Below are positions 15,098 through 42,593 of a stretch of DNA of 42,593 nucleotides, one piece after another; within the stretch, counting starts at the first letter, position 1; each line of letters begins with the position of its first letter. The notes beneath the pieces were generated by a model. The model worked only from the letters and a program-made list of their open reading frames with translations, was not told the DNA's origin and made no database searches. The translations under genes were made by a program, and so were the position numbers. The DNA is taken from the NCBI RefSeq assembly GCF_006345805.1, contig NW_021835131.1:1-42593 (forward strand), read 5' to 3'. This stretch comes from Octopus sinensis. Its lineage: Eukaryota.

Positions 15098-16357
15098 TCT
15101 GAGCAGAATAGGTTATTCAGAGCAGATTAGAAGAGATTCTATAAAGAAATAAATGGAAAGTGTACAGATGAAAATTTGAGGCCAGATAATATTGAAAGTC
15201 AAAGGTTTTGGAGTGACATCTGGCGTAAAGACAAGGAGCACAAGAAGGATGCTGGTTGCAAGAACTAAAACAAATAGTCGTCTGTCCATAACAGGTAGAA
15301 CTAACCATTTCAGTTAAGGAAATGAAGGAAATCAGCAAAAAATGGGTAACTGGAAATCCCCGGGACCAGATGGAGGTCAAGACTTCTGGATCAAAAGATT
15401 TGGTGATTATTTATGCACGAATAGCTGCACAAATCAACACCTTGTCAAATGCCGACCAAGTAACACCAGAGTGGCTGACAATGTGTAAGACATCGAAAAA
15501 GGCAATACAGTAGACAACTACAGGCCGATATCCTGCTTGCTACTTATATCGAAATTATTGACTGGAATATTCGCAGAGTCAATATACGGACATCCAGGAA
15601 AAAGTGGTGTTCTGCCACATGAGCAGAAGGGTTGCAAGCGTAAGTGCAGAGGTACCAAGGATCAACTCCTAGTAGACAAAACTGTACTTAGAGACTGAAA
15701 GTGGAGGAAAATTAACTTAGCAATATCACGGATCCATTATCGTAAGGCGTAAGATATGATTCCACATTCTTGGATTATGGCATGTATGAACTTCCTTGGT
15801 ATTGCATCGAATGTTGAGCAATTGTTTGGAAAAAGTATGGCGAAGTGGCGGACGGAACTGAGAGCGTATGGAGGAAGTTTAGGGACATTAGAAATCACGA
15901 GAGGCATCTTCCAAGGGGACTGCCTGTCCCCACTGATCTTTGTACTGTGCACGATACAACTAACACTGTTTCTGAGGAAAGCAAAGGCTGGATATGTATT
16001 CAAAAGCCGCCAGCAAAATGTCAACTACTTGTTATTCATGGATGACCTCGATACGGTGTATACTTGTATACTTTTAGTGCTGATATCGGAATGGAGTTCG
16101 GACTGAAAAAGTGTGTAGTGTTAGTCTTTCAGAGAGGCAAAATCAAATGTATGGACGGGCTAGCGATACATTCGTGGGACGTTACGAAGCAGATAGACGA
16201 GACGGGCTATAGGTACTTGGGGATATTGGAAATGGATAAATTGATGGAGAAAAAAAATGAAAGAAAAATATAAGGTGGAGTATTTGCGCAGACTGTGACT
16301 GATCCTTAAGTCGAAATTAAACGGACGGAATAAGATTGAAGCTATCAACACCTGGAG
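15098..16357 (+). pseudogene. R4/Dong-clade non-LTR retrotransposon reverse transcriptase fragment, decayed
   Basis: Across frames: [108 protein letters not shown]. Confidence 0.9.
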
Positions 16358-19581: not shown

Positions 19582-19833
19582 GACGCACACACACACATAT
19601 AGGGCTAGCTTCTTTCAGTCTCCGTCTACCAAAGCCATTTACAATGCTTTGGCCAGCTTGCGGCAATAGTGGAAGACACCTCAGGTGCCATACATTTATA
19701 TATATCTCTTATATACATTACAATTACCTATAAATCATACGTACATTAGAATAACGCATACACCACCCAACACAACACACACACACATATATATACTTAT
19801 ATGTATAATTATATGTACACATATATATATATA

Positions 19834-20812
19834 TGTTATGCAGATGATACAAAGTTCACAGCAATACAGAACCCTGAAGACACTAAGCACCTGCAATGTT
19901 GCTGGACGAAATATACAAGTGGGCTGAAAAGAATAGCATGCAGTTCAATGCTGAAAAGTTCAAGCTTTATACTATCAGCATGCAAAACTGATGCAATACC
20001 CAATGAATACACTGGACCCGGAGGGATTGCAATCCCAGAGGCACAATCAGTGCGTGACCTGGGTATTCACATGATTGATGACGTGACCTTTCATGTACAT
20101 GTTGCTAAACTGACATGAAATGCAGACGGCTGGCTGGTTGGATTCTTAGAACCTTTAGAACAAGAGAACAAGAAACCATGATGGTCCTCTGAAGACACTT
20201 GTCCTAAGCCACTTTGACTATTGCTCTCAGCTATGGTCACCATCCAGTGTCAAGTTGATCACAGAACTTGAGGCGATCCAACGAAGCTACACGAAGAAGA
20301 TAGCCTCTATGCAGAATGTAAGCTACTGAGAAAGACTCAAGAGATTAAAATTATATTCCCTGGAGCGTAGGCGGGAAAGATATGCCATAATATACATCTG
20401 GAAGATCCTGGAGGGAAGTGTCCTGAACTTTGACATCGAGAGTTACGCAAATGCCAGAACTGGGCGCCACTGCGTGGTGCCTAGGACTCCAAACTTGCCA
20501 TCAAGATGTAGGACAAGATTCTGTGATAGCCTGGGCTTCCGAGGCCCACAGCTCTTCAATATCCTCCCGAAGAACCTGAGAGACCTGCATGGGGTGGATA
20601 CAGATGTCTTTAAAATGAAGCTGGATCTCTTCCTGTCAGGTGTCCCAGATGAACCAACTTCACGGCAGGAGGGGCAGATGAGGGCAGCTGCATCGAACTC
20701 TCTCATGCACCAAATAGCAGTTGCTAGAAGCCTTCATGAGTGAAACCAAGTAGCAACACCAAATGGCGGTGCCCCCGCATGGCCACAGCTCATAAGCTGA
20801 AACTAGAATCAA
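19834..20812 (+). pseudogene. CR1-group LINE, 3' half of ORF2 (RT from YADD to the end) plus 3' tail
   Basis: YADDTK, MQFNAEKF, VRDLGI, GWILRTFRTRE, SHFDYCSQLWSP, LEAIQRSYTKKI, RLKRLKLYSLERRRERY, GPQLFNILPKNLR..FKMKLDLFLSGVPDEP. Stops and frameshifts present. Confidence 0.9.
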
Positions 20813-23175: not shown

Positions 23176-24245
23176 CTAGCAAACGCACCCGTTTCTTTGG
23201 ACGGTTTAAGTCTCTTAGGTGGTACTTTTTTCCCCAAATGATTGAACTACCTAGAAGGTTTATTAGTAGCACGACAATCTATGTTTCCTATAAACCTAGG
23301 AACAGAAAACCAAATTGAAGGCTGGTTATTGTGGAGGTCGTTGCACTTAAATGATGATAGAACATATAAGGTTGCAAGCGATGCAAAGTAGAGCTACTGA
23401 AGTATTTTTGGAGTAGATTACAGATATAGTTGTTTTACATGAAAGCGAAATATCTTATCAGAAACAGCCACATAAATGGTGTAAAGAAATTGAGGGAAGA
23501 CGTTGAAACTTACCCTCTGCGAGTTTATTTCGTTCAAAAGCAAAGGAAGCCATTTTTTCGGAGAGAAGTATTATTGGTACATTAAAAAATGGCAATATAA
23601 TACCTACTTGAAAAAGCAGAGTTAAAGGAATGTATTTGCTACATGCTACAGTGTACGCTCACTCTGGAATTGACTTCAGGTAACGAAAAATGAAGACATG
23701 AAGATTTTAACTGCAATTTGCAGTGAAAAAATGTCACGTTGAAAGGTAGAAAGATAATTGCGAAGTTGTAATGACGGTAAAAATGAGCGGGATACATGTA
23801 TACGTACTCAAAATAACCAGTATGAGTCTGAGTTTTATTCTGAGCAGAGTTTACTTAAAGTTGTTCCCCTGCATATAACGACAGTCATTACTAAGGTATT
23901 ATGAAGGATTGAAAGGGATCACGTTCGCCGGTAACGCACAATGAAAATTGGAGAATGATTGCATTGTATTCGAGTTTTTAGCCATTCAGACCAAAGTCAG
24001 AACGTTGCCCAGTCTACACCACGAGGATGCAAACTCTTGTGGACCATCCCACGCCATCCCGCGCCGTCTCATGTCGGTGTGTCGAAACAACTGCTAAAGA
24101 TTCGACCTGAAAAACCATGTTGATGTATTGGTGAAAGAGGTAGCCATGTAGTCGATGGTGTGGCTTCATCGGGACGGCAGAGCATCCTTGCTGCTCTCAG
24201 ATAGATGTTCGGTCACTCCTTATGATAGCTTTGAAGTTGGGCCCG
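23176..24245 (-). mobile_element. Probable Helitron-derived segment (3' end supported, extent uncertain)
   Basis: Minus strand ends with hairpin CCGT..ACGG, about 11 nt, then CTAG followed by T, the same architecture as 33543. LHGYLFHQYINMVFQVES at about 24100-24155 weakly recalls the Helitron Rep motif GRLFHQY.VD....IES. Confidence 0.5.
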
Positions 24246-24274
24246 TCTATATGTCGGCGTTGTATCGCAATTGT

Positions 24275-24975
24275 TGTGGTTCAGCTTTTTCCCCTTTTAC
24301 CTTTCGATAAAAGATCCATTTTTCGTCACCAGTCACAAGTCTATCAAAAAAGGGTGAAATGAGTTCGCGAGAAGGGAGAGAAAAGCAGATGTCAACTCGG
24401 GATTTGCGGTTGCTTTCGGACAATTCATGAGGCACCCATTTTCCAAGTTTAGGAAACTTTCTAAGTTGTTGAACATGACGATGAACAGTTTTATGGTTTG
24501 AACTAAGCTTTATTGCCAATTCTTTAACTGATAATGCAGGATTTTCTTCAAATAATGCCTCATGGAGCTTATCATCAATCTGAACTGAACATCCTGTTCG
24601 ATCTTCATCTTCAAGGCTGAAATTTCCACTTCTGAATTTTGCAAACCATCTTCTGCAAGTTCTTTCATTCAAGCATTCTTTCCCATAAACTGAGTATACA
24701 TTTCGAGTCGCTTCGGCTGCAGAGTTTCCTTTTTTTGTACTCATAAAGCATTATGTGCCTTAAATGCTCTTTGGATACTTCCATGTTAGGAAGGATTTTA
24801 ATCAAAGAAATTTTAATTCTATTATTCTGTAAAACAATATTCAATTAGTTTCAATGTACAGTACACAAATGCATAAAAATAATTTCTAATTCCATTAGAC
24901 ATTCTAAAATACTATTAAATTTCATTCAATTTTAAAAAAGGTAAAATCGCACAGAACTTATGGGGTGATCTGAGA
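24275..24975 (-). mobile_element. Mariner element, 5' half with one TIR; transposase pseudogene
   Basis: ATG at 24784: MEVSKEHLRHIMLYEYKK, frameshift in an A run, then GNSAAEATRNV..RTCRRWFAKFRSGNFSLEDE..WVPHEL..RLVTGDEKWIFY. TIR-like TCAGATCACCCCATAAGTTCTGT at about 24948-24972. Truncated after the first catalytic Asp. Confidence 0.93.
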
Positions 24976-26629: not shown

Positions 26630-26738
26630 ATACTAGCTACGGCGGTACATATTCTAAAACTGGAACGATACAGAGAAGATTGGCATGGCCCCCGCGCGAG
26701 GATGACACGCAAATTCGTGAAGCGTTCCATATTTTTTT
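26630..26738 (+). pseudogene. U6: Full-length U6 snRNA copy, probably a retropseudogene
   Basis: ATACTAGCTACGGCGGTACATATTCTAAAACTGGAACGATACAGAGAAGATTGGCATGGCCCCCGCGCGAGGATGACACGCAAATTCGTGAAGCGTTCCATATTTTTTT. The ACAGAGA box is intact, the catalytic AGC triad reads GGC (26682), and there is no clear upstream TATA. Confidence 0.95.
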
Positions 26739-29547: not shown

Positions 29548-30262
29548 GTGTTGTGTATGTATCGTACTTGTTTTTATCTGTATTTCATTTTTGTTTCTTT
29601 TAGAAATAAATTTCCTTCCTTCCTACTTTCTTTGTTGTCTATTGTTTGTTTTATTATTATTTGTCTCTAAATTTGTGATTGGAAATTGTTGTGAAAACAA
29701 TGGAGAAATATAGGCAATCACTGCCTGCGACTTATATAGTAATATCTATCTTCGAATAGCAAAAGAAAGAAAAAAAACAAAAACAAAAAAAAGACAATAT
29801 GGAAATAAACATAAACATAAACAATAAAAATAACAATAGAAAAAAAAATGAAAGTACAAATAAGAAATAAAAACGAAATAGTAAAATACGAAGGAAAAGG
29901 AAAATGTATTAAAATGCCGACATCAAAGATCATATCTTGATTGTTTTGTATGTAAAAATAATAATTTCTGCTCTGAGGAATCTATAGTATACGTTAAAGA
30001 TTCTTGTCAAGATTCATTAACATTTCTTGTCACCTCGTCGCCTTTGATTTGTGTTAAAGTAGGACAGAGAGATTATTGTTACCCCGAAGATTATATACAT
30101 ATATATTGAAAAGAAAAAAATAAAGATAGAAAAGAAAATGGCACAACAGAGTAAAACATGTCTACGACAGAATGGAACGAAGCGCTGCAACATAATATTC
30201 TATTCTTTAATATAGATCCACGATGGATTATTCAGGACAACGAATTAAAGAAAATAAAAGGC

Positions 30263-30320
<58 letters not shown>

Positions 30321-30325
30321 GTAAC

Positions 30326-30403
<78 letters not shown>
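30263..30403. repeat. (TAA)n microsatellite, 5' flank of the RLE LINE
   Basis: Direct inspection. Confidence 0.97.
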
Positions 30404-30404
<1 letters not shown>

Positions 30405-31663
30405 GGCCGTGGTCTTTTGCAACTGGCAATAACAATGAAGATTGCTACAATTGGCCTAGACACCTACCTGAAAAACTCTGAGGACTGGATGTTAAAACTT
30501 GTCTCAAAACATGACAACAAGAAAGCATCATACTCAGTCACAAAACAGGCAAAGGAATATCTAAGTGAATTTCGAATACAACCAATTTCGGAATTAGAGA
30601 TAGATATACAAGAAACAAGCACAGAAAAAGCTAGGCGCATGAAAACCCGTGCCAAAATTGCGGCCTTAGATATTCTGAATAGTAAATGGCAAGAAAAACC
30701 TCTCTATGGCAAATACCCAAAGAGAGCGAATAATGCAGATATCGACAAAGCCCTGACCCATCAATGGCTAATGGCCTCTGGCTTAAAATCTGAAACAGAG
30801 GGATTTATCATAGCAGCTCAAGATCAATGCCTACCAACAAGAAACTACCAGGCCAACATATTAAAGAACGGCAGTAGCCCAACATGTCGTGTATGCCGAC
30901 AACAAAATGAAACCATTGACCATGTTGTCTCCAAATGCAGTCTTCTAGCGCCTACAGAGTACCTCAGTAGGCATGATAGAGCTGCACAATATATTCACTG
31001 GGTAATTTGCAAAAACTTGGATTTGCCCCATGAAAAAAACTGGTGGGAACACAATCCACCTCCTGTGCTTGAAAATGACCACATCTCACTCCTCTAGAAC
31101 TTCACCATTCAAACTGACAGGAAGATAGATGCAAATAGGCCAGACATTATATTGAAAGACTTCAGACAAAGAACATGCCTCCTCATTGATATGACTGTCC
31201 CAATCGATATAAACGTATCTGTCAAGACCTACCAAAAACTGAGCAAATATAAAGATCTTGAAATAGAAATCAGCAAAATGTGGAAGCTGAAGACTAAAAC
31301 AATACCTGTTGTCATAGGTGCCCTGGGAATGATAGCGAAAGGGACTGATTGCTACCTAACTCAGATACCAGGAAATCCCAAAATGGCAGAAATTCAAAAG
31401 ATAGTGCTCATGGGAACTGCTCATATCCTACGCAAAATACTCTCTATGTAATCCCAAGGTTTAAAACAAACTTTTTATTTATTTATTTATTTTTATTTAT
31501 TTTTTTTATGTATTAGACATTCACTAGTACAACACCAAAAAAAAAAGGGAGAAGAAAAAAAAAACCCAAATATATGGCACAGAACTTCAACCTGTTGTCT
31601 CTTGAGGTCTCTGGGTGAGACTTGGAGCCAACTTGTACAGACATAAAGCAAAAGTCAAACATA

Positions 31664-40457: not shown

Positions 40458-40579
40458 AGGACTGACCATAAAAGTGGACAGCCTATATGCTAAACATAGA
40501 CGTCAAATCGCCATTACCACAAGAATGATTTGACGTCTATGTTTAGCATATAGGCTGTCCACTTTTAGTGGTCAGTCCT
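40458..40579. repeat. Near-perfect fold-back hairpin (52/53-bp arms, 17-nt loop)
   Basis: 40458-40509 versus the reverse complement of 40527-40579 differ only by a 1-nt indel. Confidence 0.95.
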
Positions 40580-40786
40580 GTGACCGCGTCTGCATCGTTG
40601 GTGATTTTTTTCCTCCGTCTTCCCTTCTTTGGATCTTTCCTTTTCCTATGTTTCTGACGAAGAGCTCCGCTCGAAACGTTAAACTCTCCTTCTTTCCTTC
40701 TTTCCTGAGCGTCCAATAATACTATACTTATTCCACGTTCTCACGTTGTTGTGTTTTCTCTTTGTGTTTTCATGTTTGGATTAACT
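40580..40786 (+). mobile_element. Hammerhead-bearing Penelope-like terminal repeat fragment (family D), copy 2
   Basis: Begins GTGACCGCGT and ends GTTTGGATTAACT followed by (TA)n, as does 3760-3955. Confidence 0.72.
40650..40684 (+). ncRNA. Minimal type I hammerhead ribozyme, intact core
   Basis: GTTT-CTGACGA-A-GAGC-TCC-GCTC-GAAA-CG-TT-AAAC. CUGANGA and GAAA intact, stems I and II of 4 bp each, palindromic ACGT stem III, GUU cleavage triplet. Confidence 0.82.

Positions 40787-42160: not shown

Positions 42161-42165
<5 letters not shown>
41998..42165 (+). mobile_element. Family C SINE, 5' half
   Basis: AGGCGCAGGAGTGGTTGTG..GGTTCAATCCCACTGC..GAAAGAAGCCCGTCG then (TA)n. Confidence 0.85.
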
Positions 42166-42198
<33 letters not shown>

Positions 42199-42324
42199 AT
42201 GAAAAGGGAGGAATTTCGATTATCCCCACGTTGTTAGTCGTAATATATATAAGAAATTCAAGAAGGAAAATGCACGCTCTTCACATAGTTTTCCTGAAAT
42301 TTTTAATATATCTTGTATTGTGTT

Positions 42325-42357
42325 TATCGACCGGTTTCGCTTTCGCTATTCATGACA
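42325..42357 (-). ncRNA. Minimal hammerhead-like motif with A3-U8 core variant
   Basis: TGTC-ATGAATA-GC-GAAA-GC-GAAA-CCGG-TC-GATA. 4-bp stem I (one G-U), 2-bp stem II with GNRA loop, palindromic stem III, GUC triplet. Confidence 0.62.
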
Positions 42358-42593
42358 TTAAAATTTATCTAAATACGTATTTTCTTAAGAAGAATATTTT
42401 TTGTCCATAGAAGAATGAGAACATTACTCCATTACGAAAATACCGTAATCATTATATGAAATGTAATAAAAACAAGAAAACAGCCGGCATGGCAGACTCC
42501 AACCACGTCTCTTTTCTGTTATTATCTATTTGATTACAATACACCAAAAGGATTTACGACTTGTCGAAGACCCCTAGATTATACCACGAACGT

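Follow-up and report, generated by a model that had tools for sequence, protein, structure and literature searches.

Penelope-like elements (PLEs) of Metazoa carry minimal type I hammerhead ribozymes in their terminal repeats (pLTRs), and Schistosoma mansoni families with a U3-A8 core are among those described (PMC4209133). In that account, by Cervera and De la Pena in 2014, the min-HHRs have a short stem I, a G10.1-C11.1 pair and a small palindromic loop III for which dimerisation is predicted to be necessary, and they occur as thousands of dispersed, mostly solo copies and also as inverted pairs; they cleaved weakly in vitro and only as multimers. Positions 3 and 8 pair with each other in the catalytically active fold (PMC3884650), and 3-8 covariants were active in vitro in the study of Perreault et al. 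2011, whose passages on natural core variants report U3-A8 as the only natural swap, with no purine at position 3 (PMC3088659). In the hammerhead of the Anolis Poseidon PLE, single mutants at 3 or 8 were dead and C3G/G8C partly rescued the activity, cleavage needed the PLE protein, and active as this ribozyme is, no reads ended at its cut site (PMC11167929).

The window analysed here, 42,593 nt of the Octopus sinensis contig NW_021835131.1, contains a minimal type I hammerhead motif on its minus strand (Table 1). Direct reading of 42357-42325 gave UGUC AUGAAUA GC GAAA GC GAAA CCGG UC GAUA, 33 nt in length, as the preliminary description had it. The boxes U4 G5 A6 N7 N8 A9 and G12 A13 A14 A15.1 surround a three-way junction; the core as a whole is A3 U4 G5 A6 A7 U8 A9 with G12 A13 A14 A15.1, and the cleavage triplet, GUC, is of the NUH type with an A15.1-U16.1 pair. 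The literal consensus with C3 and G8 (CUGANGA) is not present in the window copy. The core departs from it only at positions 3 and 8 and the two changes are complementary (A-U), in line with what had been claimed. The cleavage site was placed after position 17, by standard hammerhead numbering. The earlier statement that all three stems, the GAAA and the GUC fit holds for the core and the triplet, but stem II has only 2 bp and stem III, with its loop of 2 nt, cannot close as a monomer.

Table 1. Coordinates of the A3-U8 hammerhead motif and its host repeat in the window
Feature	Positions	Strand	Basis or remark
Solo 5'-truncated 3' end (pLTR) of a Neptune-like PLE, ~210 bp	42196..42408	-	Genome matches and family end motif
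(TA)17 microsatellite adjoining the element 3' end	42162..42195	.	Typically found beside copies of the family
Minimal type I hammerhead motif with A3-U8 core	42325..42357	-	Sequence read and family columns
Stem I 5' strand UGUC	42354..42357	-	UAUC in younger subfamily b
Core box A3-U4-G5-A6-N7-U8-A9	42347..42353	-	A3 = 42353, N7 = 42349, U8 = 42348
Stem II, 2 bp, G10.1-C11.1 closing, 4-nt loop	42339..42346	-	
Core box G12-A13-A14-A15.1	42335..42338	-	Family columns
Palindrome ACCGGU, predicted intermolecular dimer helix III	42330..42335	-	Self-duplex -8.3 kcal/mol
Predicted cleavage site after C17 (42329)	42328..42329	-	Hammerhead numbering
Stem I 3' strand GAUA	42325..42328	-	U at 42326 private, C in family

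We searched the window with our own minimal-hammerhead descriptor (Watson-Crick 3-8, stem I of 4 bp, stem II of at least 2 bp, palindromic loop III) and obtained two matches, the motif at 42357-42325 and a canonical one at 40650. Dinucleotide-shuffled windows gave a mean of 0.03 matches (100 shuffles, 3 of them with one match), and this figure together with the hundreds of copies in the genome ruled out a chance match. Among the matches listed for the Rfam covariance models (best 150 of 185, E<=10) there was no hammerhead family; since the canonical motif at 40650 was likewise absent from these, the silence of Rfam does not come from A3-U8 alone.

Compared with the min-HHRs (PMC4209133), the present family is alike in its location in PLE terminal repeats, the short stem I, G10.1-C11.1, the small palindromic loop III and the dispersed, mostly solo copies with inverted pairs, but it has A3-U8 where those described have C3-G8 or U3-A8, a stem II of 2 bp where their descriptor requires at least 3 bp, and no extra nucleotide between A9 and G10.1 (0 matches in the A3-U8 family). 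With the natural core variants (PMC3088659) it shares covariation at the 3-8 tertiary pair, and it differs from them in having A3. With the Anolis hammerhead (PMC11167929) it shares the pLTR location, the pairing of 3 and 8 and the lack of cut ends; that one, unlike the present family, has the canonical C3-G8, belongs to the Poseidon clade and has an ORF that starts within the motif. Since cuganga and at least 3 bp in stem II are required by the published PLE descriptor (PMC4209133), the A3-U8 family fails it twice, and the predicted invisibility to CUGANGA searches was confirmed. We found no natural A3-U8 hammerhead in the literature searched; the small dimeric PLE variants of Lunse et al., or supplements, may hold examples. 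Judging by its title, the paper of Lunse, Weinberg and Breaker (RNA Biol 14:1499) is said to concern small PLE-linked variants that cleave as dimers. Term look-ups in PMC11014351, PMC6155905 and PMC10085705 did not find A3-U8 either.

A DNA search of the 2.7 Gb genome returned 2161 candidates, of which 40 were scored; the best matches covered 42408-42202 of the window at 83-92% identity, and the window fragment was ~12% diverged from the majority of its own subfamily. In other copies the repeat sits 3' of coding sequence for reverse transcriptase (RT) and a GIY-YIG endonuclease. At locus L121, a 635-aa open frame carries RVT_1 and GIY-YIG, each at E 1.5e-6 and the former slightly under the curated cut-off, and the A3-U8 motif follows ~290 nt past its stop; RT followed by GIY-YIG in a single ORF is thus seen in copies such as L121, not in the window fragment. 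Pfam searches of short fragments gave only a weak GIY-YIG match. The L121 frame had 453 homologues at E<=1e-30, which carry RT and in many cases GIY-YIG domains. Its translation has a CX2-5CxxC linker before the endonuclease, a trait of Neptune and Nematis PLEs (PMC8557442), and by this linker the host element is Neptune-like, the rows of our tree having held no named reference PLEs. Terminal repeats were found on both sides of the frames: among 25 loci with the 5' part of the ORF, 6 had inverted repeats upstream, one (the near-full-length L276) had a sense 5' repeat in which the motif precedes the ATG of the ORF itself, and one had the 3' part of the 5' repeat alone. Because the repeat follows or flanks PLE frames elsewhere, we take the window copy for a solo fragment from the 3' terminal repeat of a Neptune-like PLE. 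Its upstream neighbour had no match among the 133 other loci of the genome compared, and the copy is an old, solitary fragment that lacks a partner in its vicinity and is probably inert.

Of 61 copies selected for flank similarity or for their encoded protein, 57 had the A3-U8 core and none had C3-G8. Similarity-picked alignments had A3 in 37/38 and U8 in 38/39 copies. When copies were picked by the 3' flank only (30 copies, two of them rearranged at the 5' core), 26 of the 28 with an intact 5' core had A3-U8, the query locus included (counted by eye, as are the following pattern counts). The full motif with positions 3, 7 and 8 left free had 41 exact matches, 32 with A3-U8, 9 with a single change and 0 with C3-G8. 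A 22-nt core pattern had 231 exact matches in the genome; 86 of the 100 listed were A3-U8, and none was C3-G8, U3-A8 or G3-C8. A pattern with A3 and the CCGG loop III had 924 matches (control 10), with U8 in 92 of the first 100 rows listed. Contigs of public runs labelled organisms A, B, C and D, of which the organism B run was thin with only 17 contigs, held no variants at or above 5% at position 3 or 8. Hence the further copies and the joint fixation of A3 and U8 that the preliminary description had asked about were both found. With A3-U8 in 57/61 family copies, copy-specific decay at 3 and 8 was ruled out, and on the copies compared, A3-U8 is the state of the family.

Sorting placed 87 of the 92 copies in one of three subfamilies (44, 32 and 11 copies), which differ by ~11-18% at aligned flank sites; A3-U8 persists in all three, and their majority motifs differ solely at N7, loop II and stem I. 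N7 was A in 19 and U in 19 of the similarity-picked copies, loop II is GAAA, GAUA or GAUU across the family, and position 17 was C in 32/39 and U in 7. At the stem I position 42326, 35/39 similar copies had C, giving a G-C pair, and C made up ~97/100 of the summed contig depth in three runs, so the G.U pair of the window copy is essentially private. In subfamily b, a 16-nt deletion put GAUA on the 3' strand of stem I, and the 5' strand UAUC restores the Watson-Crick pair. This is the one compensatory change in stem I between subfamilies (G-C to A-U); stem II, with 2 bp, is invariant and thus uninformative. Variation in the family falls on tolerant sites, namely N7, loop II and the stem I position where A-U replaces G-C. 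The 24-letter motif had 0 matches in viral and metagenome contigs. Of the presumed-RNA runs, one had 17 contigs on subfamily b and another had none on the window, so these runs speak neither for nor against expression.

With the shared stem III and with neither A3 nor U8, we obtained 1750 matches in the genome (control 29); by eye, the first 100 listed were 90 U3-A8, 5 C3-G8, 1 U3-G8, 2 G3-A8 and 2 C3-A8. As these counts cover the CCGG loop III only, a dominance of non-canonical cores in the genome does not follow from them. The U3-A8 family found most often shares the 2-bp stem II, and its PLE frame has ~54-62% protein identity with that of the A3-U8 family. Between these sisters the best, and the only clear, non-coding match was the 25-nt core (E 1.6e-4): the other 9 of the 11 core positions, G10.1-C11.1 and the palindrome match, and the flanks no longer align. 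Przybilski and Hammann, in 2007, reportedly found any Watson-Crick 3-8 pair to be cleavage-competent, and some hammerheads are said in the same work to favour pyrimidine-3 with purine-8, a preference that would count against A3-U8.

Outside this genome we scanned 91 PLE-like loci without requiring 3-8 pairing, and the 25 matches comprised 17 C-G, 5 U-A, 1 A-U, 1 G-C and 1 U-U. For a count by family we kept 19 outside loci (repeat pairs merged) and 5 types from the octopus genome, 24 in total and hand-chosen. The antisense motifs of L170 (U-U), L182 (U-A) and L213 (C-G) were dropped, and a small family of the octopus genome with one U3.G8 wobble and one U3-A8 member was left out. All 24 PLE-type families were Watson-Crick at 3-8 (16 C-G, 5 U-A, 2 A-U, 1 G-C). 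Shuffled 3-8 pairings gave a mean of 11.9 Watson-Crick families and 0 of 200000 shuffles reached 24, a figure that is not a probability because the families are hand-chosen and related. From this covariation between families we infer selection for 3-8 pairing. Within the family, majorities of the two large clusters differed at 0/11 core sites and at 17/122 flank sites, which is not significant (p=0.36). The earlier proposal of a selected variant rather than decay is thus upheld as to decay, and as to selection it draws on the comparison between families. Fixation in one family counts as a single event, and if both positions change they have a ~1-in-3 chance of ending up complementary.

The retrozyme-like loci L123-L128 have a 5-bp stem II, some in ~360-nt tandem arrangement, and their near-identical members carry either C3-G8 or U3-A8. 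At L175:117 (+), a G3-C8 minimal hammerhead with U17 shortly precedes a PLE frame of 810 aa. The two A3-U8 lineages show C17, as opposed to U17 in L175; this may possibly indicate avoidance of a 3-17 mispair, the cases being few.

A FastTree tree (35 rows, two of them the same locus, midpoint root) joined the A3-U8 family and its U3-A8 sister at an SH support of 0.999. A second A3-U8 PLE, L162, was placed far from the first family and beside the U3-A8 element L160, also at 0.999; in L162, too, the motif follows the element's GIY-YIG frame, at a distance of 86 nt. Among outside relatives, the nearest that carry a motif have C3-G8 or U3-A8, and in 11/15 of the closer outside relatives, several with short flanks, there was no motif behind the ORF. 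The distant L162 with its own U3-A8 sister suggests that A3-U8 arose repeatedly in PLEs. In the simplest reading, the pair would have passed from C-G to U-A to A-U, twice, and the A3-U8 of the present family would derive from a U3-A8 ancestor. The variant had been described as much rarer than U3-A8; its recurrence in L162 makes it less singular than this implied.

Folding calculations pointed to the dimer. The single strand folded no better than shuffles (z +1.17), and the palindromic loop III can form an ACCGGU duplex of -8.3 kcal/mol; in the model, a dimer is the only state in which the motif can fold. For a copy with G-C in stem I, the double-hammerhead fold was the cofold minimum (-14.9 kcal/mol); for the window copy and subfamily b a fold with an open stem I (-12.7) was favoured over the dimer fold (-11.1) by 1.6 kcal/mol. 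From these cofold energies and the published behaviour of PLE hammerheads, we expect cleavage to be slow, dimer-dependent and possibly protein-assisted. A pair of motifs, supplied by tandem repeats of a single transcript or by separate RNAs, would join via ACCGGU into helix III; A3 would pair with U8, placing the ribose of residue 8 as C3-G8 does; and cleavage of the RNA would follow C17, in a probably slow reaction that perhaps requires the protein of the element to be bound. Cleavage would take place in transcripts of intact elements, and the solo window copy would have no role. We regard it as likely, with the reservations that follow, that the A3-U8 minimal hammerhead of this PLE family is self-cleaving, now or in its master elements, and that its 3-8 pair is kept by selection; it is a real variant, shared throughout the family, of the minimal hammerhead known from PLEs, and probably functional in the master elements.

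The family could instead be a dead or near-dead relic, in which A3-U8 drifted to fixation in a master that did not need cleavage and spread anyway. PLE insertion in vitro does not need cleavage (PMC11167929) and Naiad PLEs thrive without canonical hammerheads (PMC8557442). None of 30 copies picked by their 3' product started at the predicted cut, and all 30 ran through the site; this missing footprint, like the non-significant core-versus-flank test, is what a relic would give, and the active Anolis hammerhead also lacks such ends. A relic, however, would drift at all core sites, whereas the other nine of the eleven core positions, the closing pair of stem II and the palindrome match a sister with unalignable flanks. 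Stem I of subfamily b was moreover re-paired after the deletion, and a second A3-U8 lineage exists. For these reasons we consider the relic unlikely.

Less probable still is a non-catalytic fold, which would dimerise the PLE RNA, bind the reverse transcriptase or set the start of reverse transcription, cleavage being incidental. Folding is helped by the PLE protein, and insertion mostly uses uncut RNA as its template (PMC11167929); the continuity of the 30 sampled copies through the cut site, and the 5' junctions of L227, L243, L254 and L276 at or just upstream of stem I, would agree with this. However, G12 (catalytic), the NUH triplet and the 3-8 pair are all kept, and this is the pattern that cleavage demands. 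Very improbable, finally, is that A3 was favoured as part of an AUG start (A3-U4-G5, for the element protein or a regulatory uORF) with U8 compensated later: the anole PLE ORF begins inside its hammerhead (PMC11167929), a donor-like GUAAGU follows the cut site and the core AUG frame of L162 is open to the contig end, but the frame stops after 16-26 codons in 4/4 natural copies from three subfamilies, ends before the donor-like site in two of these (L049, L031) and is shifted by the 16-nt deletion between subfamilies a and b, and an ATG belonging to the main ORF lies ~30 nt past the repeat in L276 and L267, so that the core AUG as an ORF start is unsupported.

The reading of a cleaving A3-U8 hammerhead has several consequences. 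The active hammerhead fold is characterised by C3-G8, and a fixed A3-U8 beside a U3-A8 sister gives natural support for the pair; the two sisters on one scaffold also make a clean construct pair for an assay. The mechanism would be unchanged and tolerance of the swap is to be expected, which makes the gain a moderate one. Search patterns should be widened to any Watson-Crick 3-8 pair and to a 2-bp stem II. We lean slightly towards a broader view, in which purine-3 hammerheads would be a working natural class that arose repeatedly from U3-A8, cleaves as dimers, perhaps with the help of protein, and numbers hundreds to thousands per genome, with CUGANGA censuses missing whole families. If this is true, C-G, U-A, A-U and G-C on near-identical scaffolds form a natural series for the tolerance of the active-site pair.

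The donor-like GUAAGU lies 25-45 nt past the cut site, and 5' junctions lie near stem I in L276 (L276:782-1000, oriented) and in the three other loci named with it above; the GUAAGU may perhaps mark an intron of the pLTR. The PLE-like loci L215-L225 are on short contigs of bacterial MAGs, which are probably animal host DNA misbinned.

Elsewhere in the window, the second minimal hammerhead, at 40650-40684 (+), has C3-G8, a bulged A after A9, a 4-bp stem II, a CG loop III and U17. It is followed ~100 nt later by a TA microsatellite and is likely part of another PLE terminal repeat. Just upstream, at 40480-40560, there is a long inverted repeat (foldback) resembling inverted PLE 5' junctions. Weak HDV-like ribozyme matches (27-28 bits, under the gathering scores) were found at 23969-24047 (-). 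A U6 snRNA match of 94 bits with several substitutions, a gene or a pseudogene, lies at 26630-26736 (+). Judged by eye from their translations, frames resembling a piece of a mariner transposase and pieces of non-LTR reverse transcriptases lie at 24247-24750 (-), 15753-16106 (+), 30258-31451 (+) and 19750-20743 (+).
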